DNA from: a virus
Virus record (IMG/VR): IMGVR_UViG_3300045988_130630
Direction: 5' to 3' (one strand)
Length of the DNA stretch: 42,988 bases
Shown here: positions 4,896 to 20,494 of the stretch, piece by piece
How the letters are laid out: each line of letters starts with the position of its first letter
Position numbering within the stretch: the first letter of the stretch is position 1
Notes under the pieces: generated by a model
The model's database searches: none
Told to the model about the DNA's origin: nothing
What the model saw: only the letters and a program-made list of their open reading frames with translations
Translations under genes and position numbers: made by a program

Positions 4896-4952
4896 TCGGA
4901 CAGCAAGTATAGAGGCGGATTAGGGCAAAGGAAACCGCATAGGTAAAAATTT

Positions 4953-5172
4953 TAGGTAATTTTTCATAGTTGCTTATAAAAATGTTAAATAAAATAGGTA
5001 ATTTTTCATAGTTGCTTATTTTTATATAGATGTCTAAATTTTAAACAAAATAGGTAAAAATTTTAGGTAATTTTTCATAGTTCCCTATTTTTATTTAGAA
5101 TTTGTAGGTAATTTTTAATAGTTAGCGATCGGTTTAGTTAGAATTTTTAAGAAATTTTTCATAGTTGCCTTT
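4953..5172. repeat. Five direct copies of the 23-bp iteron TAGGTAATTTTTCATAGTTGCTT (iteron family 2); three further copies lie at 5873-5961
   Basis: Copies begin at 4953, 4995, 5065, 5105 and 5150, with partial copies at 4940 and 5051. Downstream copies begin at 5873 and 5906, with a partial copy at 5939. Confidence 0.7.
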
Positions 5173-5246
5173 AAAAATATACTTTGGGTAAAAATTGTTA
5201 AAATTACTATTTTAGATTTGAAGTATATATGAAGGAGGTGGAAGCA

Positions 5247-5879
5247 TTGTCAGTAGAGTAGAAAAGATTTCCTGCTAATGTAGATATGAATATATTAACT
5301 TTTTTAAATAATAAGAAAATAAATGGTGAATTATATGCTTATTTATAGAGTTTATCTGAATATAATGTTATTAGTAAATAGCATAATATTTATAAAACTT
5401 ATGTATTGAAAAAATGGTTGCCAATTCAAAGTAAGATGTGTCAAATGCTTGGTATTAAAAGCCCTAAAACATTAAAAACGCATTTGAATTATTTAATTGA
5501 ACAAGGGTATATTATAGAAGAAGAAGATAGATATATATTACCTGAAATGGAAAATATATATTTTCTTATTCCACTACATACATTAAGATATATAAATGAT
5601 AACTGTAAAGAACATATTATAAAGATATATATTTATTTAGGATAGCGTTATAAATATGCATTAAATAATGGAAGTTAGTATGAATTTACATTAGAGGAAA
5701 TTGGAGAACATAGTGGTATAAAAGTAAAGAATAACAGCAGGGGCTATGAGATTATTAATAATGCTTTAACATTTTTATAGAATTCAGAATTAATTGATTA
5801 TGTTAGTTTTTTTGATGGGCAGATGCAGAAAAAGAAATTAACAAAATTTAGTTTTGAATATAAAAATTAGAATAGGTAA
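5247..5879 (+). CDS. TAG-recoded winged-helix DNA-binding protein, putative replication initiator or origin-binding protein (about 210 aa)
   Basis: TTG start 5 nt after GAAGGAGGTGGA. The frame is open to a TAA at 5877 only if 7 TAGs are read through. The translation contains ..KSPKTLKTHLNYLIEQGYIIEEEDRYILPE.. (a winged helix-turn-helix). The gene is flanked on both sides by the 23-bp iterons. Confidence 0.5.
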
Positions 5880-5992
5880 TTTTTAATAGTTGCCGATGAG
5901 CATTTTAGGTAATTTTTCATAGATGCTTCGACTTAAATTAGGTAAAAAATCATAGATTATCTAAGTAATAAGTAGAGGGTGTTTTCTAAGTA

Positions 5993-7699: not shown

Positions 7700-8077
7700 T
7701 CACTTGTTAATGAAAGTATTCAAAAAATCGGCAATTACATCATCGTCAGTTCTCTTAACCTTCTTAACCTTTACCTTCTCACTCTTGGGAAAAAGCACAT
7801 CAAGAAGATCGTTAACCCCGGTCATAAGACCATAAACCTCAGCAAAGATATTCTCCACATCGGACGCGGTCAACTCAGAATCCTTGTGGCCATTAAGAGC
7901 GGCATACTCGTTAATCCGATCGGCGATTTCCTGCGCGAGCGCGGTCTTCCGATCGGCCTGCTTGGACTCCTTCTCCACCTGCGCGACCGCAGCGTTCAGA
8001 GACTTAGCCATTTCGTCCGCAATAGCCTGAGCGTCCTCACCATTCTTCAGACGAGCAATAATATCATTCATATCCAT
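7700..8077 (-). CDS. hypothetical protein (125 aa)
   Basis: Supplied ORF track. Its promoter is at 8109-8137. Confidence 0.55.
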   Translation of the reverse strand: MDMNDIIARLKNGEDAQAIADEMAKSLNAAVAQVEKESKQADRKTALAQEIADRINEYAALNGHKDSELTASDVENIFAEVYGLMTGVNDLLDVLFPKSEKVKVKKVKRTDDDVIADFLNTFINK

Positions 8078-8108
8078 ATGAATACCTCTTTTCTTATTTT
8101 CTATATAT

Positions 8109-8137
8109 ATTATATACTATTTTTTTAAAATTGTCAA
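8109..8137 (-). promoter_or_regulatory. sigma70-type promoter (TTGACA, 17-bp spacer, TATAAT) for gene 7700-8077
   Basis: Reverse-complement of 8109-8137 reads TTGACAattttaaaaaaatagtaTATAAT. Confidence 0.55.
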
Positions 8138-8239
8138 GATTTTTTTAAATGAAAACATACGCGTGAAACAATGTAAGGGCGAAGCAATTTTTAATTAATC
8201 ATAAAGGCATATGATCCTACGCGGGCTTAAAAAAGTCTT

Positions 8240-8590
8240 TTTTTATCATTATAACATATTTTTTATAAAAAGTCAATTTTCGGGATTTTTTTGGGCCATA
8301 TGGAGAGGTGCTAGAAGTACGAAAAATTTTGCATATGGGTATACCGATCGGGAAATCGGCCCGCGACGTTCCACCGCGGGCCGGCCAAATAGACTGAGCA
8401 TTCCGGGATTTTAGTCTGAGTCTATTTTAAACACTTTTTTCGCACAAAATTTGCTAAACCTATAATTATTCCGAAATTCCGCCCGGAGCGTCAGTGATCG
8501 GGCGGTCCATTATACCACATTTTCCGATCGGTGTCAATAGGTAAAATGCACAAAAAAAATCAGCAGGTTTTAGTCAACCTGCTGATTGAA
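8240..8590. ncRNA. Non-coding structured region with two GC palindromes (8358-8382, 8479-8505), an imperfect hairpin (8391-8430), a minus-strand promoter (8509-8538) and a terminator (8559-8586); one copy of the convergent-promoter module family
   Basis: No ORF with a ribosome-binding site is present. The palindromes GGCCCGCG..CGCGGGCC and CCGCCCG..CGGGCGG were read directly. Confidence 0.35.
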
Positions 8591-8593
8591 TAT

Positions 8594-9010
8594 TTATGCA
8601 AGAAATGCGTTTACAATTTCATCGAACACCGTGGGGTTAATGTCCACGTTAAAAAAGCGGTCGTTCTTGCGGAACGCTTTGGGGTAGCGTCTAATCAGTT
8701 CCGCACGCAACGCGCTTTCCGCACCCTCGGCGGGATAGTCCCCGCAAGAACGGATTCGATGAATTTCAACGCGCGTGATAGCATACTTTTTTGCATACTC
8801 GCCGATTTCATCACGCAAACGCCCTACAACATCTTTTGCGGAAGTGCCTACTTTGTTAAATTCAAGTTCGTCGTTGTGGTAAAACTTGAAAAAGTAAACC
8901 GCTTGTTCATTTTTCAGATTCTCGCCACAATCAGGCATGAATTCCATAGAAACGGGCGGTCTACCGTCCTTAAATCGGCGTAGCTTAATAGTAATTTCTT
9001 CCATTGGCAC
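8594..9010 (-). CDS. T5orf172 / GIY-YIG-like domain protein (about 137 aa)
   Basis: Contains AVYFFKFYHNDELEFNKVGTSAKDVVGRLRDE, matching the [YF]-h-x-K-h-G-x-T...RL..L core of the T5orf172 family. AGAGAGGA ribosome-binding site. Start is either the ATG at 9004 or the GTG at 9010. Confidence 0.45.
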   Translation of the reverse strand: MPMEEITIKLRRFKDGRPPVSMEFMPDCGENLKNEQAVYFFKFYHNDELEFNKVGTSAKDVVGRLRDEIGEYAKKYAITRVEIHRIRSCGDYPAEGAESALRAELIRRYPKAFRKNDRFFNVDINPTVFDEIVNAFLA

Positions 9011-9025
9011 AAAATCCTCTCTGTT

Positions 9026-9054
9026 GATTGAGGTTTACCATCGTTCTCTCAACC
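9026..9054 (-). promoter_or_regulatory. Conserved 29-bp 5'-leader element GGTTGAGAGAACGATGGTAAACCTCAATC (hairpin GGUUGAG/CUCAAUC), copy 1; copy 2 at 12272-12300
   Basis: The identical 29-mer lies between the promoter and the ribosome-binding site of two different genes (8594-9010 and 11470-12246). Confidence 0.5.
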
Positions 9055-9084
9055 ATTATTTTTTGCACTTTTTGACTTGTTTTG

Positions 9085-9120
9085 GGGTGAAAAACCGCAT
9101 TTTTCAGCGGTTTTTCACCC
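9085..9120. terminator. Terminator with a perfect 14-bp stem (GGGTGAAAAACCGC / GCGGTTTTTCACCC)
   Basis: Read directly. Confidence 0.6.
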
Positions 9121-9127
9121 TTTTTCG

Positions 9128-9535
9128 TCAGTTTTTGGGCTTTCGCTTCTGAATCAGGGTCAATTCGTAGTCATTTTCGCCCACATGGAACGCAATCATG
9201 CGCTCCACATTCGTAATTTCCACGTTTTCGCACGCATTTTCGCTGTTTTCACGCAAAAAAGTAGCGAGTTCCGCGATAATCGAGCGTTTTGTGGGGTTTT
9301 CCTTGCGCTGTCGCTTTTCAAACTTATAAGCGGTCGGCGCTTTGCGTGTTCCGGTCTTAGAATACTTGTTAGCTTCTTTGAGCTTTTCTGCGGACAGGTC
9401 AAAGTCCTTGGCAATTCCATGGTCAATGTCATCATCGTCCATGAGAATTTCTTTTGCTTCCTCGGCAGTACAATCCAACTTTTTCATCAGATTGTCAATC
9501 TTTGCCTGAAAGTCCTTTTCACTCATTTTAGGCAT
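9128..9535 (-). CDS. hypothetical protein (135 aa)
   Basis: Supplied ORF track; AAGGGGG ribosome-binding site; promoter at 9560-9589 (TTGACA, 18-bp spacer, TATAAT). Confidence 0.55.
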   Translation of the reverse strand: MPKMSEKDFQAKIDNLMKKLDCTAEEAKEILMDDDDIDHGIAKDFDLSAEKLKEANKYSKTGTRKAPTAYKFEKRQRKENPTKRSIIAELATFLRENSENACENVEITNVERMIAFHVGENDYELTLIQKRKPKN

Positions 9536-9599
9536 TTTCTTTGCCCCCTTTCAAGTATGATTATAACACCGCCGTTAGCAAATGTCAAGAGAAATTTTT

Positions 9600-9630
9600 G
9601 GGAGCGCCTGATTTTTTTCAGGCGCTCCCC
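9600..9630. terminator. Terminator hairpin GGGAGCGCCTGA / TCAGGCGCTCCC
   Basis: Read directly. Confidence 0.6.
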
Positions 9631-9635
9631 CTGAA

Positions 9636-10013
9636 TCAGTGGGCGAGACGGAAGTAGGACTTGCGCTTGTCCACAATCTTCTCGACGCCGTTCGCTTCAA
9701 TCATCTGACGCAGAAGAGCGGAAACGCGCTGATTGGTGAGGTCGCCCAGACCGTCCACGTTCTTGATGAGTTCGGTCACGGTATACAGCTTGTCAGGATT
9801 CGCGGACAGCTCGGCAAAGATAATGTCCTTGTAGCCGTCGTTGGCAATCTGATTCGCGGTCGGCTTCTTGTCACCGGCGTTCTTGCGGGACAGCAGGTCG
9901 ATTTCGTGGTTGATAAACTCAACCATAGCAGGGTCAGCCTGAACCTCGGACAGTTTGAGCAGAGCCTCGAAACGGTCGCGCTTGGTGAGCTTCTTAACAG
10001 TAGAAGTAGACAT
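9636..10013 (-). CDS. hypothetical protein (125 aa), paralog of 12389-12769
   Basis: About 70% identical to the product of 12389-12769. Both share the identical ribosome-binding-site context AAAGGAATTGATACTATGG and the same promoter type. Confidence 0.6.
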   Translation of the reverse strand: MSTSTVKKLTKRDRFEALLKLSEVQADPAMVEFINHEIDLLSRKNAGDKKPTANQIANDGYKDIIFAELSANPDKLYTVTELIKNVDGLGDLTNQRVSALLRQMIEANGVEKIVDKRKSYFRLAH

Positions 10014-10019
10014 AGTATC

Positions 10020-10700
10020 AATTCCTTTCTTTGGCGGTAGGTCGCTACCCTTTTGATATTATTGAGTATACCACACTTTGGAGTGCTTGTCAAGAGGTTT
10101 CGCAAACTTTTCACACGAATTACTACCCCGACCTGACGGATAATTTATTGTTTGTTGATTCAATCTATTTGTCAGCGGAAAACCGCGTCAAGGATAGTTG
10201 GTTCAATCAAACTCACTTTCGCGTTCAACGTTTGGCTTTACAACGTGGTGTATTCTGTTTACTTCCTATACTTTCTCAAGGTCGCGCGCCCTCGGATTTC
10301 TTGGGCTACTCCCTCTCGACATTTTCTATTGTAGCACACTCGCTGGGATTTGTCAAGAGGTTTTCAAGAAAAAACTCATGAATTTTTTCTTTTATCCCGT
10401 GCGTTCCGCTCCGAAGAGACCTTAACGTAATAGGCGAACGGTCTATTGCTACTTCCAACCGTAGCCCCACACCGACCTGTGGCTCAGGGGTTCCCCTCTT
10501 GACATTATTTATTGTAGCACTTTTCGCACTACTTGTCAAGAGGGAATTTCAAATTTCTTTGAAAACGGGTCAGTTACCGAGTTATCACACCCATCAGCGA
10601 AGCCGTTCGGCAATTCACTGTTCCCTCTTGACATTATCCATTATAGCAGATTGCCCATAGATTACAATTGACAAAATAACCAAATTACGGGAAAAAATTT
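10020..10700 (-). promoter_or_regulatory. Tandem array of four sigma70-type promoters (-35 hexamers at about 10085, 10360, 10525 and 10660 in plus-strand coordinates) with no convincing downstream ORF; three place ATGTC(A/G)AGAGGG 2-5 nt after the -10
   Basis: Reverse-complement reads CCTCTTGACA, 17 bp, TACAAT, then aaATAATGTCAAGAGGG. Repeated three times; the first copy drives gene 9636-10013. Confidence 0.45.
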
Positions 10701-10725
10701 TCTTCATTTTTGTGCAACTTTTCTC

Positions 10726-10754
10726 TTGACAAAATTGGCGGGGCGTGGTATAAT
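10726..10754 (+). promoter_or_regulatory. Plus-strand sigma70-type promoter (TTGACA, 17-bp spacer, TGGTATAAT) of module B, firing into the GC palindrome at 10764-10788
   Basis: Read directly. Confidence 0.5.
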
Positions 10755-10792
10755 GGTGAATTCGGCCCGCTTTGGGCGTTGGCGGGCCGGCC

Positions 10793-10821
10793 ATTTTATC
10801 ACAAAAATCCGCGTTTGTCAA
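10793..10821 (-). promoter_or_regulatory. Minus-strand promoter (TTGACA, 17-bp spacer, TAAAAT) of module B, convergent with the plus-strand promoter
   Basis: Reverse-complement reads TTGACAaacgcggatttttgtgaTAAAAT. Confidence 0.45.
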
Positions 10822-10835
10822 TAGACAAAATAGAC

Positions 10836-10870
10836 AAAAAAAACTACCCATTTTTGGGTAGTTTTTTTAT
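10836..10870. terminator. Bidirectional terminator (CTACCCA/TGGGTAG hairpin with A8 and T7 flanks)
   Basis: Read directly. Confidence 0.6.
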
Positions 10871-11116
10871 TCAATCCAAAAGGTTAATCTCGCCGGGAAT
10901 TTTGAAAGAATCAGCGTCCAGCGTGGAATTGTAGTCCTCGGTAAAGAGTTCAATCATTCCACATTCCATGATGTAATTCTGCACCGCCCGCTGAACATTT
11001 CTCCAAAGGTCAGTCTTTCGGCTTTCCTCACGGGCTTTTCTGGCTTCCTGTATCTGGATAATGAGTTCGTCCAGTTCCTCGTCGGTCATGTAATTAAAAT
11101 TCAAATCCATTTTCAA
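10871..11116 (-). CDS. hypothetical protein (81 aa)
   Basis: Supplied ORF track; ATGA overlap with the upstream gene. Confidence 0.5.
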   Translation of the reverse strand: MKMDLNFNYMTDEELDELIIQIQEARKAREESRKTDLWRNVQRAVQNYIMECGMIELFTEDYNSTLDADSFKIPGEINLLD

Positions 11117-11391
11117 AACTCCCTTTTAATTGCTTTTTCCCACACTTCACGACCGAATTTTCTCTCGCGGTCTAACTTCTTGCCAATGTCTTTTGCGGTC
11201 AGCAGGTCAAGCTCGTCCGCAATCTCGGCTTCAAAGTTTACCCAAAAGTCGTAGGTCTTGATGATGAAAACTTCATCGGCTTCAAAGACGCCGCCGCACT
11301 CGGCGCAGATAATATAGTCATGGTCGATTAAAATGCCCATGTGAGGGTCATTGTCATCAGGGACTACAAAAAGAACTTGTTTAGCGTTCAT
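11113..11391 (-). CDS. hypothetical protein (about 92 aa; start MNAKQVLF, with CxxC)
   Basis: AAAGAGG ribosome-binding site before the ATG at 11391; consensus promoter at 11421-11449. Confidence 0.5.
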   Translation of the reverse strand: MNAKQVLFVVPDDNDPHMGILIDHDYIICAECGGVFEADEVFIIKTYDFWVNFEAEIADELDLLTAKDIGKKLDRERKFGREVWEKAIKREF

Positions 11392-11420
11392 GTGAAACAC
11401 CTCTTTCATTTGATATATTG

Positions 11421-11449
11421 ATTATACCATAGGGAATAGGACTTGTCAA
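11421..11449 (-). promoter_or_regulatory. Consensus sigma70-type promoter with extended -10 (TTGACA, 17-bp spacer, TGGTATAAT)
   Basis: Reverse-complement reads cTTGACAagtcctattccctaTGgTATAAT. Confidence 0.6.
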
Positions 11450-11469
11450 GCCCTATTCCCTATTTTTTT

Positions 11470-12246
11470 TTAGCTCATGTTTACAACGGGATTTTCCTTA
11501 ATGTTTCGCATGAGCGCGCGCTGAAACTCGGTCGGCTTGGGGCGTTCCACCGTGGGAGCTTTGAAAAGGGATTTTTCCATGGGTTTGTGCTGTCGGACGC
11601 AATAGCGCAGAATCTCAACTTCAATGAGAACATCTTCAAGTCCCGTATGCGATTCATCAAAACTGTCCTCGCCGCTGATAAAGCGGTAGAGAATTTCTGC
11701 GGTAAAGCGGAGCTGTCCGTTCTTGGTCTTGTAGCCGTTCTTTTCGCAATAGTCGCGGTAAGTGGGCATCTGACCGATAACCTGTCGCGCCATTTTCAAG
11801 GTGTCCCAGATTTCAAGGTCATAGGGGAAGAAATAACGATACTTGCTTTTCGTGTCCCATCTTTGCGCATTGTTGCAGGCGTTCAAGTCGAACCGCATAT
11901 TATGAGCGCAGACAAAAGAGCAGTTATAACGCTCGACACATTCGCAGAACGCCTGACGAATTTCGTAAAGGTCAGCCATAATGCGCGAACCATTCTTAAT
12001 GTCCTCAATGTAGCGAGGAATCTTGTCGGCGTAGTATGCGGACTGCATGAGGTCGCGCTCGTAGCAGAAAATGTCGCGATTCACAAAGGAATAAGTTTCA
12101 TAAACATTTCCCTTGGAATCAATGACCGCCCAGCCGAAGTCGTAGGGAAGTACATTTGACATATCCAGCTTATCGCCGTCCTGAATGGTGTTTGCGGTTT
12201 CCGTGTCCAGCATAATGCCGTAGTTTTTGCGCCTATCAATACCCAT
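11470..12246 (-). CDS. DEDDh-family (DnaQ-like) 3'-5' exonuclease (258 aa)
   Basis: Exo I motif MLDTETAN, Exo II CAHNMRFDLN and Exo III HTGLEDV. AGGAGACG ribosome-binding site. Promoter TTGACA, 17-bp spacer, TGcTATACT at about 12305-12335. Confidence 0.6.
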   Translation of the reverse strand: MGIDRRKNYGIMLDTETANTIQDGDKLDMSNVLPYDFGWAVIDSKGNVYETYSFVNRDIFCYERDLMQSAYYADKIPRYIEDIKNGSRIMADLYEIRQAFCECVERYNCSFVCAHNMRFDLNACNNAQRWDTKSKYRYFFPYDLEIWDTLKMARQVIGQMPTYRDYCEKNGYKTKNGQLRFTAEILYRFISGEDSFDESHTGLEDVLIEVEILRYCVRQHKPMEKSLFKAPTVERPKPTEFQRALMRNIKENPVVNMS

Positions 12247-12350
12247 CTTATCGTCTCCTATTGGAAAAGTAGATTGAGGTTTACCATCGTTCTCTCAACC
12301 TCTGATAATAGTATAGCACTTTGCTATTGGTTTGTCAACAGTTTTTTTGT

Positions 12351-12380
12351 AGGGCAGGGGATTTTTTTTATCCCCTGCCC
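12351..12380. terminator. Terminator (GGGCAGGGGA / TCCCCTGCCC hairpin around a T8 run)
   Basis: Read directly. Confidence 0.6.
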
Positions 12381-12388
12381 TTTTCCCT

Positions 12389-12769
12389 TTACGCGAGGGA
12401 GAAGTAGGACTTGCGCTTGTCAACCGTCTTGACAACGGTGTTGGCTTCAATCATCTGACGCAGAAGAGCGGAAACGCGCTGATTGGTATACTCCGCGAGT
12501 TCGGGAACGGTCTTGATGAGGTCGGTCACGGTATACAGCTTGTCAGGGTTCGCGGTCATCTCGTCCAGAATGACCTGCTTCACAGCGTCATTCTCCATCT
12601 GCTTGGCCGTGGGCTTCTTGTCGCCCGCGTTCTTCTTGGCGAGCAGTTCAATCTCATGCTCGATGAACGCCACCATATCAGGATTTGCCTGAACCTCATT
12701 CATTTTGAGCAGAGCCTCGAAACGGTCGCGCTTGGTGAGCTTCTTAGTAGTAGAAGTAGAAGTAGCCAT
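12389..12769 (-). CDS. hypothetical protein (126 aa), paralog of 9636-10013
   Basis: See the paralog at 9636-10013. Promoter at about 12825-12855 (TTGACA, 17-bp spacer, TATAAT). Confidence 0.6.
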   Translation of the reverse strand: MATSTSTTKKLTKRDRFEALLKMNEVQANPDMVAFIEHEIELLAKKNAGDKKPTAKQMENDAVKQVILDEMTANPDKLYTVTDLIKTVPELAEYTNQRVSALLRQMIEANTVVKTVDKRKSYFSLA

Positions 12770-13274
12770 AGTATCAATTCCTTTCTGGTTTTTAAGACTG
12801 TCCTTGTCTTTGATGTAGTTATTATATCATAGGCGGAGCAGGTTGTCAATAGTTTTTACAAATTTTTTTTTAGGGGCGGTCGCGAGGTTTATTACTATAC
12901 ATCTTGTTTATGCCTACCTTTATCTATACTCTTAAACCAATTCAATTTACTAAGCCATTAGTTTTTAAGGCGGTGGGCGAGCATTAGAAGTCATCTTGTT
13001 TTTACCTCTCTCATTTGATGTATTCATTATACCATAGGTCGAGCGGTTTGTCAAGGGGTTTTTCAAACTTTTTTTGAAAGTTTGTTCGGCACGCCACGCT
13101 TGGAACATTCCTTGTGTCGGCTTCTGGTATGATGGTCAAAGGAACTGCCTTTCCGTAGGTCTTACTCTTTCCTCCTGACATTATGTAGTATAGCAGATTG
13201 GAACTGATTTGTCTATTAACGAAATAACCAAATTACGGGAAAAAATAAAATTGAAATTTGTGCGAAATTTCTCT

Positions 13275-13302
13275 TGACAAAAATGCTGGCAGGGTGTATA
13301 AT
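13275..13302 (+). promoter_or_regulatory. Plus-strand promoter (TTGACA, 16-bp spacer, TATAAT) of module C, firing into the palindrome CCGGCCG..CGGCCGG (13311-13337)
   Basis: Read directly. Confidence 0.5.
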
Positions 13303-13340
13303 GGTAAATTCCGGCCGTAGCGCGCGGAAACGGCCGGCCA

Positions 13341-13369
13341 ATTATATCACATTTAAGGAACTTTGTCAA
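13341..13369 (-). promoter_or_regulatory. Minus-strand promoter (TTGACA, 17-bp spacer, TATAAT) of module C
   Basis: Reverse-complement reads ctaTTGACAaagttccttaaatgtgaTATAAT. Confidence 0.5.
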
Positions 13370-13382
13370 TAGTCAAAGTAAA

Positions 13383-13420
13383 CAAAAAAAATCTCCCCGT
13401 TTTGGGGAGATTTTCTTTTA
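13383..13420. terminator. Bidirectional terminator (ATCTCCCCG/CGGGGAGAT hairpin with A8 and T-rich flanks)
   Basis: Read directly. Confidence 0.6.
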
Positions 13421-13675
13421 GCCAATTACATTGACTTCGGTTTTGACAGGCGTCACCATCTTGTCGCGCGAGAACTCGCGAACCTGACCCGTTTCAAGAT
13501 TCACCGCGTAGCAATACTGCGAACCTCTCGACCGGACAAACGGCGTGTTGTTGTTGCTGTCAATTTTGAGATACATTCCCATACCGCTACCGTTGGAGCG
13601 CAGAGTGGTGAACGTGCCACCGCTGAGAATGTTAATAATTTGGAGCTGACCCTTAGTGCCAAAATTTACTTTCAT
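13418..13675 (-). CDS. hypothetical protein (85 aa)
   Basis: Supplied ORF track; GGAGAAA ribosome-binding site. Confidence 0.5.
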   Translation of the reverse strand: MKVNFGTKGQLQIINILSGGTFTTLRSNGSGMGMYLKIDSNNNTPFVRSRGSQYCYAVNLETGQVREFSRDKMVTPVKTEVNVIG

Positions 13676-13849
13676 TTTTATTTCTCCTCTCTTAAAGCAG
13701 ATGGGTATTAACCCATTCTGCGGTCACAAGTCCGATTTCCTTAGAGACAACCGTTTCATAGCGGTAATTACCGCCATCAGTTCGTCCGGTCACTTTGGCG
13801 AGAACGCCAAGTGTCAACCAAAAATAAGGCATCATTTTTTTACCCCCTA

Positions 13850-14050
13850 TTACTTACTGCTCGGAAAGATAGCGCCCAGAAGTGCGAGGATAATCCAAAC
13901 CACGAGCGCCAGCTTCCACGAGAACACGATAACAAAAGTGCCGATTGCGGTGATACCGAGGGCGGGAAGAAGCCAGCAGAGAAGCCAGACAAGGCCCGAA
14001 GTAGCAAGGAACGAAAACGCGAGAGACAGCAGAATCAAAAGAACAAACAT
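13850..14050 (-). CDS. small membrane protein with two transmembrane helices (about 66 aa)
   Basis: Start taken at the third Met (MFVLLILLS), which has an AAAGGGGAAAA ribosome-binding site. Promoter at about 14075-14110. Confidence 0.5.
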   Translation of the reverse strand: MFVLLILLSLAFSFLATSGLVWLLCWLLPALGITAIGTFVIVFSWKLALVVWIILALLGAIFPSSK

Positions 14051-14104
14051 TTTATTTTCCCCTTTCATTTGATACATTTATTATACCATTGGAGTAGGGC
14101 TTTG

Positions 14105-14605
14105 TCAAGCCCTTTTCTCCAAAAGTTCCGAAAGTTTTTCGATAATGTTTACTGCGGTCGGGTCAATGGTTTCACCCAAGTGCCAACCATTCCGAACCTT
14201 TTCATTATCGTCAACCAAGATGGACACGTCATAGCGGTCGCGCACGCTGTCGGCCTTAGTCGCGCCATACTGGACGCCGTGAAAGTGGTCATAGTGGAAG
14301 CCCTGTTCTTCAAGCCACGCGCGCTTTGCTTCACGCACGAGGTTTTTGTATTCCTCGCTCGAATCTTTGGAAAGCCAAGTGATGATGTTGATTTCCCAGC
14401 CCTCGGCGCGGAGAAGTTCGCAAACCTCATTCAGTTCAGCCATATTGCACATGGGAACAGCAGTTCGATAGGGCTTAGGATTTTCCGAACGGAGAAGTGC
14501 AAGCCAATCCTTGACGCCGTAGAGGTCAGCAATAGTGCCGTCCATGTCAAAGTTGATGGAACGTCGAGTGGCCACAACGTGGGACTTGATGTAAGTGATT
14601 TTCAT
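14105..14605 (-). CDS. HAD-superfamily 5'(3')-deoxyribonucleotidase-like phosphatase (166 aa)
   Basis: N-terminal FDMDGTIAD (the DxDGT nucleophile motif) and later DD motifs, as in NT5C-type deoxynucleotidases. Confidence 0.55.
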   Translation of the reverse strand: MKITYIKSHVVATRRSINFDMDGTIADLYGVKDWLALLRSENPKPYRTAVPMCNMAELNEVCELLRAEGWEINIITWLSKDSSEEYKNLVREAKRAWLEEQGFHYDHFHGVQYGATKADSVRDRYDVSILVDDNEKVRNGWHLGETIDPTAVNIIEKLSELLEKRA

Positions 14606-14673
14606 AGGTATTACCCCTTTCCTTTACTGTATCTGTATTATACCATACATCTGCGCGGTTGTCAAGAGAAATT

Positions 14674-14964
14674 TTAGCAATTTCCCGCTTTATTTATCCA
14701 TTCTTTCCATTTATCTTTGGCAAACTTTTTATATTCTTCTTGCCAAATACCACCTGCAATGGCTTCTTTTACTGCGTCATCAATAGAAAGATATTGGTTG
14801 GGAAAAACAAAGTCATCACAAAAGAACCGAGTTCGACCAAAGAATTTGCGGTTAGGGCGGATAACTTCATCAACAGAGATATAGATTAGCCCATATGATT
14901 CATCGTTGTATACCTTAGCCTCAAAGGTTCTTCCCTCATATTCATAAGTTTTCGGCTTACTCAT
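14674..14964 (-). CDS. hypothetical protein (96 aa)
   Basis: Supplied ORF track; promoter at about 14990-15025. Confidence 0.5.
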   Translation of the reverse strand: MSKPKTYEYEGRTFEAKVYNDESYGLIYISVDEVIRPNRKFFGRTRFFCDDFVFPNQYLSIDDAVKEAIAGGIWQEEYKKFAKDKWKEWINKAGNC

Positions 14965-15051
14965 AGCGTTTGTCCTCCTTTACTATGCTTGTATTATACC
15001 ACTATTGGATTTGCTTGTCAAGTGTTTTTTTCAAAATTTTCGCGGTCTTTC

Positions 15052-15237
15052 TCAATACACGAAAGATAAGAAATTAAGCAAAATCAGCACAGGAATAGCG
15101 TAGACGATATTGAAAGAGTCCCACCCGAGACTTTCACAGGAATAGGCAAAAATAAAGCCAAAAACGAGGCCGAAAATGCCGATTAAAATAATCATTCTAA
15201 ATCCTCCATATGACCGTAGTGTTCGTTGATATGCCAT
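15052..15237 (-). CDS. small membrane protein (61 aa)
   Basis: Supplied ORF track; hydrophobic sequence. Confidence 0.45.
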   Translation of the reverse strand: MAYQRTLRSYGGFRMIILIGIFGLVFGFIFAYSCESLGWDSFNIVYAIPVLILLNFLSFVY

Positions 15238-15455
15238 TCAAGATAGGTATTAGTCGCAATCTGAATTTCTCTATCTAACCAGTCGTAAAAGTCCTCGGGG
15301 TCGCGGGCCATGCGTTCGTCAATAATATCAGCAAGAGAAACGCGATGGGCGATAAACTCTGAAATATCAAGAGAATCCATAGAAGAAAGAAGTTCTTCCA
15401 CACACTCTTCGCGAGTGGAGAACTTTTCAGTAGAAAAATCGTGAGTGTAATACAT
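15192..15455 (-). CDS. hypothetical acidic protein (about 88 aa, start MYYTHDF)
   Basis: The track ORF 15192-15641 was truncated to the Met that has a ribosome-binding site (AAAGGGGATACAAACAATG). Its upstream part runs across repeat module D. Confidence 0.45.
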   Translation of the reverse strand: MYYTHDFSTEKFSTREECVEELLSSMDSLDISEFIAHRVSLADIIDERMARDPEDFYDWLDREIQIATNTYLEWHINEHYGHMEDLE

Positions 15456-15574
15456 TGTTTGTATCCCCTTTCCTTTACGGTAATTATAGTATAGCAGATT
15501 ATTACATTCTTGTCTATTGGTAAAATAACCAAATTCGGGAAAATAATTAGTTAGACTTTTGGTTAAATTTCCTA

Positions 15575-15603
15575 TTGACAAATTGCTGGGATGGTGGTAT
15601 AAT
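15575..15603 (+). promoter_or_regulatory. Plus-strand promoter (TTGACA, 17-bp spacer, TGGTATAAT) of module D, firing into the palindrome at 15611-15637
   Basis: Read directly. Confidence 0.5.
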
Positions 15604-15639
15604 TGGAATTCCGGCCGTGGCATGCGCAAACGGCCGGCC

Positions 15640-15669
15640 ATTTTATCACACTATTGGGTTTTTGTCAAT
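15640..15669 (-). promoter_or_regulatory. Minus-strand promoter (TTGACA / TAAAAT) of module D
   Basis: Read directly. Confidence 0.45.
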
Positions 15670-15686
15670 AGGCAAAATAAATAAAA

Positions 15687-15720
15687 TTTTGAGACGAGAT
15701 TTGGTTATCTCGTCTCAAAA
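15687..15720. terminator. Bidirectional terminator (GAGACGAGAT/ATCTCGTCTC)
   Basis: Read directly. Confidence 0.6.
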
Positions 15721-15725
15721 TATTT

Positions 15726-16178
15726 TTAACGCTCGGACGCAATGCTGAGGTAGCGGGCAATCATGTTCATTTCGCAACTCATGTCATGCCAATCGCAGAC
15801 CACATAGCCCACAAGGTCGCCATCTGCGTGAATCGGATAAACACCATAAGTGTTATTGAAAGCGAACGGCTTATTTTCAAATTCCCACTGGGTCGGGACG
15901 TAAGCTGGAAAGTTTTCCATGCCCCGCAGTTTTACGGTGGTGTCATAGATTGCGATGGGGCGCAAGCCGGACTTTGACGCCATCGTGATAGCGGTTCGCA
16001 TACAATCTTCGGTCAAAGAGCCAAGCACCGAATACCTCTTGAAGCAAACGCAGTCGTTATCTTCAATGAAGATTTCGAGCGGGTCGCCCTCGCGAATCTT
16101 CAAAGTCCGACGAATTTCTTTCGGAACGACCACACGTCCAAGGTCATCAATTCTGCGAATAATACCAGTAGCTTTCAT
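15726..16178 (-). CDS. AbrB/SpoVT(MazE)-family DNA-binding domain protein (150 aa)
   Basis: N-terminal MKATGIIRRIDDLGRVVVPKEIRRTLKIREGDPLEIF matches the swapped-hairpin AbrB N-domain consensus (K.TGIVRK.D.LGRVVIP.E.R..L.I...D.LEI). Confidence 0.65.
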   Translation of the reverse strand: MKATGIIRRIDDLGRVVVPKEIRRTLKIREGDPLEIFIEDNDCVCFKRYSVLGSLTEDCMRTAITMASKSGLRPIAIYDTTVKLRGMENFPAYVPTQWEFENKPFAFNNTYGVYPIHADGDLVGYVVCDWHDMSCEMNMIARYLSIASER

Positions 16179-16242
16179 TTTAATTTTCCCCTTTCACTTG
16201 ATACGTTAAGTATAGCAGAACAAAAGGCTTTTGTCAAGTCCT

Positions 16243-16716
16243 TTATTCAAGATTTTTGCTTTCTGCGACAAAATATTTTGCTTCGTATTGATTGGCAATA
16301 GCCTTGACTTTTGCGCTTTCCTTTTGGGTCGCGCAGTAAAAATTGAAAAGCGTATGTTTATCGCTCAATTCAATGTAAGAGTGCGGAACATCATGCAAAT
16401 CAAAATCAATGGTGTTAGTGTATTTTGTCGGGACAGTCAGTTCGACTTTCCATAATCGGTCTTTGCGGGCTTTCTCTTCAATCCACTTGACAAAGTAAAC
16501 GCCCACGAAATTACAAACGGCAGTAATAGCCATTTTCAACCAGATAGGCATACCGTCCGCGGAAGTCAGCACAATCACATAGGAATAAAAACCATAAGTG
16601 ATAGCGTTGATAAGAGATGCGCTGACTTTTCCACCATTGACAGTTAAAATGCTTTTGATGGTTGACAGAATCACATTCACCGCCGTGCAAAGCGCGAATA
16701 GAAGAATTGTATTCAT
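16243..16716 (-). CDS. membrane protein (157 aa; three N-terminal transmembrane helices plus a cytoplasmic domain)
   Basis: Supplied ORF track. Confidence 0.5.
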   Translation of the reverse strand: MNTILLFALCTAVNVILSTIKSILTVNGGKVSASLINAITYGFYSYVIVLTSADGMPIWLKMAITAVCNFVGVYFVKWIEEKARKDRLWKVELTVPTKYTNTIDFDLHDVPHSYIELSDKHTLFNFYCATQKESAKVKAIANQYEAKYFVAESKNLE

Positions 16717-16961
16717 TCTATCACCTCAATGTCGCAATAAATACAGTCGGTAATATCGACGTATTCCTCAAAACTCATTCTTTTATCATCGCGGTGGGTA
16801 AAGTCGATGTAGGCATCTCTACCGCGAAGATTATTTTCTTCATTGTATGCGTGAGTGGCATTATCAAAAGCCTTAATAGCGTCAGCTTCATTATAAACCA
16901 CCACTTCTTTGACTTCCGGAGCATCATACCAAATAGTATATTTCTTTTTCATTATTATCAC
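16713..16961 (-). CDS. hypothetical protein (82 aa)
   Basis: Supplied ORF track; ATGA overlap. Confidence 0.5.
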   Translation of the reverse strand: MIIMKKKYTIWYDAPEVKEVVVYNEADAIKAFDNATHAYNEENNLRGRDAYIDFTHRDDKRMSFEEYVDITDCIYCDIEVIE

Positions 16962-17176
16962 CCTTTCCTTTTTCTATTATAATAATATCATAATATAATA
17001 GAAATGTCAATAGAGAGTTTTTAATTTACTCTTTTAATTTTTCTAATAGGTCATCAGCACAGTCATAGCTGATGCCTCTGCGGTCGCATTGGTCAGACAA
17101 AGGGCAACAAGCGCAGTCATTAAAGGTTTCCGTCCAAGCGCGCAACCAGTCAATCAAGCGCAAGACGTTAACTTCC

Positions 17177-17521
17177 TCATACATTGTCGTCATTCTCCTT
17201 TACTCGGACAAAAAAGACCTTGTTATAAATTTTCTCTGCTTTAAGGTCAATCCAAAAATATACATTACCGCATACTCGATAGATTTTGCAAGTCTCTCCA
17301 CTAACCTTTTTGACTTCTTCAAACTTCTCTTGCGTAGTGGGGTGAAAAATCGTCAGTTTGAGAAATATGCAATAGAAAGATAAAGGAACGAAGCCGATAA
17401 TCAGAGCAATCCATGCAAGAACGTCAGTCAAGGTGTTTTCCCATTCACACCACTCATCGGTAATTGTAGCGAACGCGATACCCACGCAAAACGCGAGAAT
17501 CAACCAATACCATGCCACCAT
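17177..17521 (-). CDS. membrane protein (114 aa, two transmembrane helices)
   Basis: Supplied ORF track; AAGGGGG ribosome-binding site; promoter at about 17545-17590. Confidence 0.5.
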   Translation of the reverse strand: MVAWYWLILAFCVGIAFATITDEWCEWENTLTDVLAWIALIIGFVPLSFYCIFLKLTIFHPTTQEKFEEVKKVSGETCKIYRVCGNVYFWIDLKAEKIYNKVFFVRVKENDDNV

Positions 17522-17671
17522 TATTTTATTCCCCCTTTATTTGTTGTATACATCTTACCACATTATAGGATTTTTGTCTATTGGCATTTTACACAAAAAT
17601 TCGTGCGAAAATTTGTTGAACTTACCTCTTGACAAAAAACTCGGCGCGCCACAATCGTCCGCGCGCCGACG

Positions 17672-17700
17672 ATTTTATCACATTCAAGGAACTTTGTCAA
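17672..17700 (-). promoter_or_regulatory. Minus-strand promoter of module E (TTGACA, 17-bp spacer, TAAAAT); the palindrome CGGCGCGCC..GGCGCGCCG lies at 17642-17668
   Basis: Read directly. In this copy the plus-strand -35 element (17629-17634) has no -10. Confidence 0.45.
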
Positions 17701-17712
17701 TAGTGAAAGTAA

Positions 17713-17748
17713 ACAAAAAAAATCACCCAATTTGGGTGATTTTTCATT
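17713..17748. terminator. Bidirectional terminator (ATCACCCAA/TTGGGTGAT)
   Basis: Read directly. Confidence 0.6.
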
Positions 17749-17924
17749 TAGTTTCCTACGGCTTCGAGGTCGACGAGAATGGGAACGAGCTTGTCTTCAA
17801 GAAGCGCGACACGCTCAATCATTTCATTTGCTGCTGTTCCGCCCGACGGGTATCTCTTCTGAATGCCGTATCGAGCCATTCTGCACACCGTTTCAACAAC
17901 CTCGCTCAGTTTCTCATTCTTCAT
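17748..17924 (-). CDS. hypothetical protein (about 58 aa, start MKNEKL)
   Basis: GGAGATAAG ribosome-binding site. Confidence 0.4.
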   Translation of the reverse strand: MKNEKLSEVVETVCRMARYGIQKRYPSGGTAANEMIERVALLEDKLVPILVDLEAVGN

Positions 17925-18035
17925 TTTTCTTATCTCCATTCAATTTATTTTTTGGAAAGGGTGGCGGTTGTTTCAGGCACAACCGCCAAAGCCATAGGAA
18001 AGGGGGAGAAAAACACGAACAAAAGTTCGGTTTTG

Positions 18036-18284
18036 TCAAGGGATAATCAGTTCCGCGTCATAGACAGGCCGAACCATGCAGGGCGCGCCAAAACAGTCGA
18101 GATTGTAAGTGTCTAAATTGAGAGCGTTCCATTCTTCTGCACCGGTATCTTCATCAACCACAGTCGCGATTTTGATGTAATAGACGTTTCCAGAAGCAGG
18201 GTCTTGAAAAATCATACCCTCGGGGAGGTCTTCAAATGCAACCATTTTGTTGCTATGCTTAACAGTAATTTTCATTTCGTTCAC
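18036..18284 (-). CDS. hypothetical protein (82 aa)
   Basis: Supplied ORF track. Confidence 0.5.
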   Translation of the reverse strand: MNEMKITVKHSNKMVAFEDLPEGMIFQDPASGNVYYIKIATVVDEDTGAEEWNALNLDTYNLDCFGAPCMVRPVYDAELIIP

Positions 18285-18634
18285 CCTTTATAATAGTATT
18301 TGTAAGCCCATTCAATGATTTCATGGCTTGTGGTAGTCCATTCCTCTTTGGGACTATCGAACTTTTCCGCATACTTTTTGATGTAGTTATTATACTCCAT
18401 GCGCGCGGTGTCGTATGCTCCAATAGCCACAATTAAAGCGTGTTTCGCTTCTTCGGCGTCGGAGGCTGCTTTCTTGCGGTCGGGGCAGTCAGGATAAAGG
18501 TTAATCACCCCTACGCGCGTAATGGCTTGCCTTGTCTTTTCATAAAGGCGGTCGCGCTCTTCCCAAACCTTATAAATCAAATCGTCTGCGCGATTTTCAT
18601 AAGGGTTGAAAGGCTTCTTTTTCTTACCGAACAT
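18281..18634 (-). CDS. hypothetical protein (about 117 aa, start MFGKKKK)
   Basis: Track ORF truncated to the Met that has a ribosome-binding site. Confidence 0.45.
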   Translation of the reverse strand: MFGKKKKPFNPYENRADDLIYKVWEERDRLYEKTRQAITRVGVINLYPDCPDRKKAASDAEEAKHALIVAIGAYDTARMEYNNYIKKYAEKFDSPKEEWTTTSHEIIEWAYKYYYKG

Positions 18635-18964
18635 TTTTCTTTTTCTCCTTTTCCTGTTTATTCCACATTCTATCAAAGAACGCATTTGCGAGAACATGCT
18701 TGTAAAGGTTATCAGGCATGGGGCGCTCACCGTGCTTGTTTCTCCAAATCGCGGTGATTTTATCAATATCCGCGATATAGGCGGTAATGAGTGTGCCATC
18801 GGAAGCGCTACGAACGAGAAGAACGCCGGTTGTAGTGATAGTGTAGAGAATATCGTTCTCAACGCTGTCGATATATGGTTCGCCGATTCCTACATTATCG
18901 TAGATGAAGAGCAGGCGGTCAATACGGTCTTGCGTGGCGTGTTTTGACATTTTGATAAGCATTT
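18624..18964 (-). CDS. hypothetical protein (about 113 aa, start MLIKMSKH)
   Basis: AAAGAGG ribosome-binding site; promoter at about 18985-19030. Confidence 0.45.
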
Positions 18965-19034
18965 GTTTTACCTCTTTCTTTTTCTCTTGGATTGATTGTA
19001 TTATACCATATGGGGAGGGGCTTGTCAAGCCCCT

Positions 19035-19184
19035 TTAATATAATTGTTCCCCATCGTGGTAGCGCTCATATTCCGCTTCAAGGAAGTCGAGAATAGTTTC
19101 AAAGTCGTCTGCATCTGCGGGGTCTGCAAAGACCTTTTCAAGGACTTCGTTAGTGTGCCAATTGTAAACTCGAATAATATCCAT
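19035..19184 (-). CDS. small acidic protein (49 aa) MDIIRVYNWHTNEVLEKVFADPADADDFETILDFLEAEYERYHDGEQLY
   Basis: Not in the ORF track because it is shorter than 60 aa. GAAAGAGG ribosome-binding site; consensus promoter at 19215-19243. Confidence 0.5.
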   Translation of the reverse strand: MDIIRVYNWHTNEVLEKVFADPADADDFETILDFLEAEYERYHDGEQLY

Positions 19185-19214
19185 TTTACTTACCTCTTTC
19201 TTGATTGTATATGT

Positions 19215-19243
19215 ATTATATCATGCGGAAGGGCTTTTGTCAA
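19215..19243 (-). promoter_or_regulatory. Consensus sigma70-type promoter (TTGACA, 17-bp spacer, TATAAT)
   Basis: Reverse-complement read directly. Confidence 0.6.
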
Positions 19244-19257
19244 GCCCTTTTTATCAG

Positions 19258-19461
19258 AAATGATAATTTCTGATGATGGCGTCGAACTTGGGAGCATATA
19301 CGGTTTCCCACTGTTCTTCAAGAGTCTGGTCATTCGTGCGATATAATTCCCACGAGACTGCACCATAAGCGTTATGCTTGAAAAACTCGGCATCGCAGGG
19401 CATCTGCTCGGCATAGAGAAGCTGGGTCTTGATAAAAGAGTGAATGTTGTAGTTAGTCATT
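19258..19461 (-). CDS. hypothetical protein (about 68 aa, start MTNYNIHSF)
   Basis: Track ORF truncated. Promoter TAGACA, 17-bp spacer, TATATT at about 19480-19530. Confidence 0.45.
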
Positions 19462-19586
19462 TTATTTACCTCATCTTTCTGTTCCCTTGGAACAATTATA
19501 ATATAACACACCCTTAGAGATTTGTCTATTGACGGATCGCACAAAATTGGGAAAAATAATTTGTGCAAATTTTCGCAACTTTTTGC

Positions 19587-19615
19587 TTGATAAATTGCTG
19601 ACCCTGTGATATAAT
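19587..19615 (+). promoter_or_regulatory. Plus-strand promoter (TTGATA, 17-bp spacer, TATAAT) of module F, firing into the palindrome CCGGGCGCG..CGCGCCCGG (19623-19649)
   Basis: Read directly. Confidence 0.5.
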
Positions 19616-19832
19616 GGAAATTCCGGGCGCGTGGGCCGTGCGCGCCCGGCCGAACGACCATTGTTAAAATTTTAACAAAAATAAAATAGAAAGGGCGCGG
19701 TAATTATCGGCTACCGCGCAAACCATAGTATGAAAAATTTGTTTACTACTTCAAGAGGCTTACCATTTCCTCTTGACATGATTATAATACCACAACGGGG
19801 CGAGTTTGTCAATAGTTTTTTGAAAAAAATTT

Positions 19833-19860
19833 TCAGGCGAGATAATTAAATCTCGCCTGA
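19833..19860. terminator. Terminator hairpin TCAGGCGAGAT/ATCTCGCCTGA
   Basis: Read directly. Confidence 0.55.
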
Positions 19861-19863
19861 AAA

Positions 19864-20070
19864 TTATTCGTCCCAAATAGCTCCCGCAATCCAAAAGTAT
19901 TCATAGCGGAGTTTCGACTGAAACGCAAATAAAGCATCTGCGATTTCTCCACCGATTTCGCGGTCATCTGCCACGGGAAGCGTCTGACTTTCTTTCGCAA
20001 TTCTTTGAGCCAACTTTTCAAGGGCGTCTGCCTGTTCTCTCAAAGCCTGCGGGATAGGTTTTTCATTCAT
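19864..20070 (-). CDS. hypothetical protein (about 68 aa, start MNEKPIPQ)
   Basis: AAGGGGGAAA ribosome-binding site. Confidence 0.45.
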   Translation of the reverse strand: MNEKPIPQALREQADALEKLAQRIAKESQTLPVADDREIGGEIADALFAFQSKLRYEYFWIAGAIWDE

Positions 20071-20419
20071 TATTTGTTTCCCCCTTTGCAAAATTAGATG
20101 TTAGCTCTAACGTATGTCCGCATTTATCACAATACCAATAGTAAAAAACTGTTCCATGCCGACCGTGAGAAGCATTTACAAATTCCATTTCATTTCCGCA
20201 GATGGAGCAATAGCCGTCATTCCATGCCTTTTTATCGGCATTGTGTTCTGCAATTATCATGCCCACCATACCATAGCCAAGGGCGCATGAAATGAGAAGA
20301 CCAGCCAACAGTCTGGCTATTGGGTGAGACTTTTCCATGTTGCACCAACAGATAAGGCAAATGAACATTGCCAGAACTGCGCTGATGATTCCGCCACAAA
20401 TTAAGAATTCTGCTCCCAT
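20063..20419 (-). CDS. membrane protein with a C-terminal CxxC...CxxC zinc ribbon (about 118 aa)
   Basis: Track ORF with the start taken at MGAEFLICGG. Confidence 0.5.
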   Translation of the reverse strand: MGAEFLICGGIISAVLAMFICLICWCNMEKSHPIARLLAGLLISCALGYGMVGMIIAEHNADKKAWNDGYCSICGNEMEFVNASHGRHGTVFYYWYCDKCGHTLELTSNFAKGETNNE

Positions 20420-20422
20420 TTT

Positions 20423-20494
20423 TATTTCCCCTCTCCGCATTTAACGCATTGAGCGTGTGTTCCGCACTTCCCATCACAATAAGGACATTCCATT
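20423..20494 (-). CDS. 23-aa zinc-ribbon micro-protein MECPYCDGKCGTHAQCVKCGEGK
   Basis: AGGGGAATAAAAAAATG ribosome-binding site and start. Its stop overlaps the start of the downstream membrane Zn-ribbon gene. Confidence 0.35.

Follow-up and report, generated by a model that had tools for sequence, protein, structure and literature searches.

Why would two phage genes that encode unrelated proteins share the same 29 nt ahead of their coding sequences? The question is raised by a 42,988-nt stretch of viral DNA (IMG/VR record IMGVR_UViG_3300045988_130630, hereafter the window, by which we mean the stretch at its full length), in which a first-pass annotation had noticed an identical leader element upstream of two early genes and had interpreted it as a functional hairpin. 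An exact-match search of the whole window confirmed that the 29-mer, GGTTGAGAGAACGATGGTAAACCTCAATC, is present twice, at 9026-9054 (copy 1) and 12272-12300 (copy 2). Both copies are on the minus strand and upstream of minus-strand open reading frames (ORFs), copy 1 preceding 8594-9010 and copy 2 preceding 11470-12246. No third copy was found in the window with up to three mismatches allowed (0.00 expected from 100 shuffles). A scan of the window with a covariance model built from 21 variants of relatives returned only the same two sites, with scores of 62.7 bits for copy 1 and 56.7 bits for copy 2, the next score being 14.5.

A sense-strand RNA hairpin under purifying selection

Relatives of the element were gathered by loop-only scans, from 80 protein-anchored exonuclease loci, from loci of the 138-amino-acid (138-aa) protein encoded downstream of copy 1, and by one metagenome scan; L162 and similar handles designate individual entries. 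A stem-only scan of IMG/VR using GGTTGAG-N15-CTCAATC yielded mostly chance matches and was discarded. The exact 29-mer was recovered from about 14 related IMG/VR contigs of 85-197 kb. No contig had more than two copies, and the contexts were the two known from the window. The wider motif is present in dozens of contigs (80-197 kb) from IMG/VR and metagenomes, at one or two per phage genome of about 100-200 kb, and many of the metagenome matches come from human-gut samples.

The motif consists of a lower stem of 7-10 bp, a purine-rich internal loop (RA / AAA), an upper helix of 2 bp and a GA(U/A)G tetraloop, the internal loop reading 5′-RA / 3′-A(A/C)(A/G/U) across members. The hairpin proposed in the first-pass annotation does appear in the predicted fold of both window contexts. 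Its stem is 8-9 bp long instead of the 7 bp described, and what was taken for a simple 15-nt loop is in fact structured, with a GAUG tetraloop on a 2-bp helix above a 2×3 internal loop. RNAfold placed the hairpin within the minimum-energy structure in six contexts (−7 to −13 kcal/mol for whole leaders), with A-U and C-G pairs around the GAUG tetraloop at the apex.

The two parts of the hairpin evolve in strikingly different ways. The central 13 nt, GAACGAUGGUAAA, are almost invariant across phage clades with differing stems, and the exonucleases of the clades sharing this apex are only 25-65% identical. The stem arms read GGUUGAGA/CCUCAAUC in the window and are replaced in relatives by different yet complementary pairs, namely AGUUGAGG/CCUCAAUC, AGUCAAGG/CCUUGAUU, UGUAAGGA/CCCUUAUA, GGUUGAAG/CUUCAAUC, CAUUAAGGG/CCCUAAUG, GUAAUCGGGG/CCCCAAAUAC and UUGUCAGGGG/CCCCUAAUAA. 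The claim that the 29-mer is functionally constrained is thus borne out, as distant phages keep the apex while their stems change in a compensatory way.

We quantified this pattern in two alignments, an ungapped one of 21 distinct variants (A3) and one of 39 distinct sequences aligned to the model (A4). In A3, seven of the nine stem pairs change on both sides, 77% of the cells are paired compared with 22-52% after the partner has been shifted by 1-3 columns, and 26 cells covary against 12.7 ± 2.8 after shuffling, none of 500 shuffles reaching 26. The larger alignment A4 gave 54 covarying cells against 25.6 ± 3.9, a value again reached by none of 500 shuffles. Single fitting changes point the same way: L159 has A-U in place of the G.U pair, and the closing A.C is replaced by A-U in L158 and by G-C in the next clade. 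Even between the two window copies a small covariation can be seen in the pair that flanks the 29-mer, which is U-A in copy 1 and A-U in copy 2. One stem position retains a G.U pair in 20 of the 39 sequences of A4. Since this G.U would read as A.C on the opposite strand, the structure under selection is that of the sense RNA, or at least of a single strand, and not that of a palindrome in double-stranded DNA. Taken together, these results show a sense-strand RNA hairpin under purifying selection.

The upper helix varies as well, with AC/GU as the consensus, GU/GC in L192 (AAGUGAUGGCAAA), AA/UU in L189 (CAAGAUGUUGA) and AU/AU in L203 (AAAUGAAGAUACA); L189 and L203 were assigned by position, being found in the orthologous gene's leader directly past the promoter, and their model scores are not significant. 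Assignment of the apex to the K-turn, the sarcin-ricin/loop E or the tetraloop-receptor type was rejected because the strand order or variants L192 and L268 do not fit. A terminator or attenuator was likewise rejected, as in the six folded contexts the hairpin is followed by no U-tract and no alternative pairing with the Shine-Dalgarno (SD) sequence was seen. Neither inspection by eye nor the folds revealed a conserved pseudoknot joining the loop to sequence further downstream or an anti-SD switch, and a search of the window for an antisense partner of the loop found none.

Could the identity of the two copies simply reflect a recent duplication that took in coding sequence, the case that the first-pass annotation had named as speaking against selection? 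The segment at 9583-10111 (minus strand), which carries a 125-aa paralogue gene (9636-10013), is 74% identical to the segment at 12333-12867 (minus strand), which carries a 126-aa paralogue gene (12389-12769) and ends at the copy 2 promoter and motif. At the other locus, copy 1 is set apart from the duplicated arm by an insertion of about 500 bp that includes a gene for a 135-aa protein. It is thus probable that the two motif copies are homologues derived from this old duplication and not elements of independent origin. The perfect match is nonetheless not a by-product of recent copying: at 74% identity, 29 identities in 29 positions have a chance of about 1.6e-4, and the immediate flanks of the two copies are only about 50% identical. 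Similarly, all 29 nt are retained in L162, which has a 91%-identical exonuclease, between flanks that are 67-75% identical.

The motif is spread across a large group of uncultured phages, mostly from the human gut. A megablast search of GenBank phages gave no near match to the region, and the motif is absent from the closest cultured relatives, Enterococcus phages whose exonuclease shows about 38% amino acid identity. The promoters, the SD sequences and these distant Enterococcus phage relatives all point to Firmicutes as the host group. One 163,874-nt contig (CAMELE010000001.1) with both motif copies (L333 and L334) belongs to a metagenome-assembled genome labelled 'uncultured Mollicutes bacterium'; most likely, it is a phage genome that was binned as a bacterium. 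Nothing in the window matched Rfam 15 at gathering thresholds, and permissive scans of both leaders (E<=10) returned chance matches only, none of which fits the minus-strand hairpin. The motif is absent from Rfam 15 and may or may not be among the approximately 10,000 unnamed structured-RNA candidates catalogued from IMG/VR and human microbiomes (PMC10690425, PMC8040213), which come from the same data sources and are of the same kind, i.e. conserved structures located at most 25 nt upstream of phage genes.

Position of the hairpin and genes behind it

The first-pass annotation placed the element between the −10 box and the ribosome-binding site of both genes, right at the 5′ end of the transcript. 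This description holds for copy 2. A σA-type promoter, TTGACA-17-TATACT with a TG extension (12310-12338, minus strand, 11 of 12 matches), lies 9 nt from the 29-mer, counted from the −10 box. Because A12301 can pair with U12271, the minimum-energy hairpin extends over 12271-12301, with the apical 13-mer at 12280-12292 (internal loop GA/AAA, helix AC/GU, tetraloop GAUG). Given a predicted transcription start near 12302-12303, the hairpin would begin at about +2 or +3. An SD sequence read as AGGAG (12255-12259) follows 12 nt past the hairpin and 8 nt before the ATG of the exonuclease gene (11470-12246, minus strand). The same arrangement of promoter and hairpin is seen in relatives.

Copy 1 is organized differently. 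With its flanking pair, the predicted hairpin occupies 9025-9055 (minus strand, apical 13-mer at 9034-9046) and is separated by only 3 nt from a sequence read as the SD of the 138-aa gene, AGAGAGGA (9015-9022), the gene itself (8594-9010, minus strand) starting at either GTG 9010 or ATG 9004 to give a putatively GIY-YIG-like protein of 138 or 136 aa. Our promoter scan detected no acceptable σA-type promoter adjoining copy 1, and here neither the proposed location next to a −10 box nor that at a transcript 5′ end stands. The nearest upstream σA-type promoter (9560-9588, minus strand, 12 of 12 matches) is the likely source of the copy 1 transcript. As this promoter is upstream of the preceding 135-aa gene (9128-9535, minus strand), copy 1 is probably inside a bicistronic mRNA. 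The ORF list and tblastn synteny are consistent with co-transcription of the 135-aa and 138-aa genes, and tblastn synteny also reveals homologues of the 135-aa gene directly upstream of the motif in several clades. Between the 135-aa gene and copy 1 is a 15-bp hairpin (9084-9121) that is listed as a plus-strand terminator and has no U-tract on the minus strand; its pairing is kept in L268 through two compensatory changes.

We next analyzed the localization of the motif across relatives. It is always just upstream of the SD sequence and in the sense orientation. In promoter-linked instances, the end of the −10 box and the first base of the apex are 14-19 nt apart, with one exception at 12 nt for which the script may have chosen another −10. 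With this spacing, pairing would begin at about +1 to +3 relative to the predicted promoters. The base of the stem is 3-15 nt from the SD sequence, and the end of the apex is 21-34 nt from the start codon.

At least four types of genes are found behind the motif: DEDDh-type exonucleases, putatively GIY-YIG-like proteins, HD phosphohydrolases and, in one clade, an 86-aa acidic protein. The shared theme, judging from the sequences, is that of enzymes for cleaving or hydrolysing nucleic acids or nucleotides. The 258-aa product of the gene behind copy 2 is of the DEDDh type (DnaQ-like), with invariant DTET, HN.RFD and H....D in alignment A2 (Exo I-III residues D13/E15, N115/F118/D119 and H199/D204); it matches phrog_20187 at 1.8e-41 and, weakly, phrog_192 at 4e-5, and its 38%-identical Enterococcus phage counterpart is annotated as an exodeoxyribonuclease. 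Searches of Pfam, NCBIfam and PDB sequences with this protein gave no match. The DEDDh exonucleases behind the motif belong to several subfamilies that share DxE, N..FD and H....D.

The first-pass annotation had also named a T5orf172-like gene. The 138-aa protein, encoded behind copy 1, has no Pfam match to T5orf172 or GIY-YIG, none of any kind in Pfam (even at E<=1), PHROGs, NCBIfam or PDB, and none in a Foldseek comparison with PDB. Its family includes a 211-aa version in L323, where the motif is carried on a different stem, and a 125-aa protein behind the motif in L320 has a similar Y..KLGET..R pattern. The HD phosphohydrolases match PF01966 at 2e-11. In their clade, the exonuclease gene is 6-10 kb away and has an ordinary short leader without the motif.

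Among the homologues of the 138-aa protein (P0147, P0166, P0178 and others; L323), many are 215-230 aa long, and these long versions have an N-terminal helix-turn-helix resembling σ70 region 4 (PF08281, weak). At the position of the 138-aa gene in the next clade, L257 6440-6620 contains a T5orf172-like sequence, YIDRDGNFILKVGTTNDLERRRKEH, in a frame with no canonical start before 6604 and no motif upstream; this gene may begin at a non-canonical codon, or it may be a pseudogene.

Possible functions of the hairpin

What does an invariant apex on an interchangeable stem do in front of such genes? The first-pass annotation had put forward a shared translational operator, an RNase processing site and a protein-binding element that coordinates the two genes, all of which are still candidates. 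We propose, with moderate confidence, that the motif is a shared operator at which an RNA-binding protein of phage or host origin would set the translation and/or the lifetime of these mRNAs. The motif would act in cis, as a structured element of the 5′ leader in selected early mRNAs, and a trans-acting factor would dock at its apex, the likeliest such factor being an RNA-binding protein encoded by the phage or the host. We infer a docking site because the apex is invariant on a stem that varies freely. Given the distances that separate the motif from the SD sequence and the start codon, a bound protein would be located at the upstream edge of the region covered by the 30S subunit, as at the gene 43 operator of phage T4. 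A hairpin that starts at +1 to +3 should, in addition, shield the transcript from 5′-end-dependent decay. Copy 1, which is perfect without a promoter of its own, suggests that the position relative to the ribosome-binding site matters at least as much as a 5′-terminal position. Since the motif precedes at least four unrelated gene families, the regulator is probably a factor other than the product encoded downstream.

The 125-/126-aa paralogues and the 135-aa protein are candidates for this trans-acting factor. The two paralogues, encoded upstream of the motif copies, are 73% identical to each other, and by eye their C-terminal halves look winged-helix-like. Their family has one to three members in most related loci. 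Both this family and that of the 135-aa protein are also found in phages without the motif.

Several observations weigh against a shared operator. The presence of the motif in front of at least four unrelated families, together with its absence from the exonuclease gene of the HD clade, makes simple autoregulation unlikely. One clade (L164-171, 177, 185) keeps a hairpin in place and has lost the apical module, which suggests that the stem, as a protective layer, has some value alone. Furthermore, the constant start of the hairpin at +1 to +3 would be equally expected of a pure stabiliser of the 5′ end.

Leader hairpins and translational operators are already known as a kind, to which the motif, as far as its sequence tells, would be an addition. 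The closest comparison is the gene 43 operator of phages T4 and RB69, a hairpin whose apical nucleotides are the same in both phages and which lies about 40 nt ahead of the start codon (PMC3014915). The likeness extends to the position in the leader and to a conserved apex above a lower stem that differs; moreover, gene 43 encodes a DNA polymerase, i.e. a DNA-metabolism enzyme carrying exonuclease activity (PMC3014915). However, the loop of the gene 43 operator is UAAC/UAAA, whereas that of the present motif (GAACGAUGGUAAA) combines a GA(U/A)G tetraloop with an RA/AAA internal loop. In addition, the gene 43 operator is autogenous and acts on one gene, while the present motif precedes at least four unrelated families and is known from sequence only. 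Another parallel is offered by the E. coli rne 5′ UTR (untranslated region), in which Diwa et al. are said to have described, in 2000, hp2, a conserved stem-loop with a sequence-specific internal loop. Reportedly, a nuclease gene is under feedback control through hp2, and the motif similarly precedes nuclease-type genes. Unlike the motif, hp2 is said to sense RNase E activity, and its sequence and host group are unrelated.

Knowledge of post-transcriptional control is scant for the large, uncultured phages of Firmicute type that inhabit the human gut. The motif is short, easily recognised and widespread, and it marks a small, coherent set of genes for nucleic-acid-degrading enzymes. If its apex is indeed a protein dock, it would provide a direct handle on a new phage or host RNA-binding regulator and would help to explain how potentially self-destructive phage nucleases are timed or limited. 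At the least, the motif is a well-supported candidate for a new cis-regulatory family in Rfam. It is also a compact and portable leader element for expression work in Gram-positive bacteria.

An alternative that we regard as possible, if unlikely, is a pure 5′-terminal stabiliser, in which the hairpin would block pyrophosphate removal and attack from the 5′ end (by RNase J1/Y in Firmicutes, RNase E elsewhere). The few enzyme mRNAs so protected would outlive early transcription, and no specific partner would be needed. This explanation is consistent with a hairpin that begins about 3 nt or less from the predicted start in all promoter-linked copies, with unrelated 5′ hairpins that occupy the same place in other exonuclease leaders of related phages (L164 type, L193, MT837012) and with the clade that keeps the stem without the apex. 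Precedents exist in Firmicutes, including the aprE leader stem-loop of Bacillus, ermC, SP82 early phage mRNA (PMC7509114) and the STAB-SD of cryIIIA (PMC7509114, PMC4113751). Like them, the motif combines a stem-loop at the predicted 5′ end of promoter-linked copies, a purine-rich SD-like stretch, strong σA-type promoters and strong SD sequences, and SP82 is itself a large virulent Bacillus phage. Yet a stabiliser requires no particular loop, and the 13-nt apex is near-invariant; the known Firmicute stabilisers have no conserved loop and are not shared among genes. Moreover, copy 1, being promoterless and probably internal to its transcript, is not at a primary 5′ end.

We consider it improbable that the hairpin works in antitermination of the nut or put type, in which a nascent hairpin, with or without a phage protein, lets RNA polymerase pass terminators. 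The lambda nutL and nutR sites each contain boxB, giving two near-identical short hairpins per genome, in early leaders without other resemblance, whose conserved loop docks a protein. The present motif is comparable in that a short hairpin with a conserved loop is found just past early promoters, one or two per genome, in a terminator-rich region. However, its loop is of another type than that of lambda, not a GNRA-like pentaloop (boxA was not searched for), nearly every gene in the region has its own strong promoter and would not need read-through, and the tight coupling of the motif to the SD sequence and start codon would be unexpected.

Equally improbable, in our view, is a role in ribosome loading, in which the purine-rich 5′ strand of the stem (GAGG/AAGG) would serve as the SD for the AUG of the tetraloop, and a tiny upstream ORF (uORF) or the binding of 30S subunits would control the gene. 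Most variants do have an SD-like RRGG 4-5 nt before the loop AUG, several of the resulting uORFs end in or beside the main SD (for instance MVNLNQ* and MVNLNLLFQ*), and STAB-SD and SP82 are again precedents. On the other hand, three independent variants carry AAG in place of the AUG (L176, the second copy of L320 at 1612-1662, and L203), and the length and stop of the uORF vary from 4 codons (MVNP*) to in-frame fusions. The loss of the AUG and the variable length and stop led us to reject a regulatory uORF or leader peptide. In addition, the window version has only GAGA where most variants have GAGG, AAGG or GGGG, the SD-like strand is always paired in the stem (−9 to −13 kcal/mol), and its spacing of 4-5 nt contrasts with the 8-10 nt of real genes here.

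A more speculative variant, to which we attach little weight, is that the apex might be a minimal sensor, either a tiny aptamer or the dock of an RNA-binding protein responsive to a signal, such that, in a large clade of human-gut phages, a nuclease regulon (exonuclease, GIY-YIG-like protein and HD hydrolase) would be switched on only if a nucleotide-derived signal reports this to be safe or needed. A mini-riboswitch proper, with a minimal aptamer gating the nuclease and phosphohydrolase genes by a nucleotide-like metabolite, is highly improbable: the small, highly conserved internal loop and tetraloop and the nucleotide or nucleic-acid theme of the downstream genes would suit it, but the element is very small, the folds contain no alternative pairing, terminator or SD-sequestering structure, and no Rfam riboswitch matches. 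Just as little credence is given to an element acting at the DNA level (a palindromic operator for a DNA-binding protein, a hot spot of recombination or gene conversion where modules meet, or the remnant of a duplication), for although the motif is at the edge of an old duplication, in a region of shuffled promoter/terminator cassettes and downstream of genes whose products look winged-helix-like from their sequence, its conserved G.U is strand-specific, its half-sites vary around an invariant asymmetric centre, which is the opposite of a dimer operator, it always lies in the sense orientation between promoter and SD, and the two copies of 3300014039_000024 differ at 5 positions and both keep their pairing, contrary to gene conversion.

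Sequence context of the two loci

Both copies are located in a dense array of small minus-strand genes (8-26 kb), in which nearly every gene is preceded by a strong SD and by a consensus promoter of its own, TTGACA-17-(TG)TATAAT. This block (8000-26000) has a GC content of 40-45%, compared with 29-35% in the flanking regions, and contains more than 25 near-consensus cassettes of promoter, terminator and ribosome-binding site that form repeat families. It resembles the host-takeover module of SPO1 and the PeSL cassettes of T4. Besides the 125-/126-aa paralogues, a further paralogous pair is found at 10602-10871 and 13147-13419. Directly past the exonuclease stop codon, at 11421-11460 (minus strand), an 11-bp hairpin TAGGGAATAGG...CCTATTCCCTA holds the −35 box (TTGACA) of the next promoter in its loop.

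Upstream of the exonuclease promoters of many relatives (L164-L171, L177, L185, L200, L202, L209, L215, L217 and L223), a conserved AAAATTTGTGCAAT box is found about 10 nt upstream of the −35 box. It may serve as a binding site for an activator or represent a promoter of a second type, and it is not enriched in the window. The TTTGTGCA box, located upstream of relatives' promoters, likewise shows no enrichment in the window.

The D8 repeat family (8465-8512, 10749-10796, 13297-13344 and 17628-17675) forms another class of repeated structures, in which a perfect minus-strand promoter is followed 3-5 nt on by a GC-rich hairpin with a 7-9 bp stem and an 11-13 nt loop. The stems differ among the four copies yet remain complementary (−14 to −20 kcal/mol). 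Three of the copies have a facing plus-strand promoter about 40 bp away (8439-8466, 10726-10754 and approximately 13262-13290) and are thus convergent promoter pairs across a palindrome. Elsewhere in the window, six direct repeats of about 42-44 nt with the core TAGGTAATTTTTCATAGTTGC, spaced by 41-69 bp, are found at 4936-5178 and 5856-5936. Lying in an AT-rich, gene-poor stretch, these iteron-like repeats could mark a replication origin or a regulatory site.

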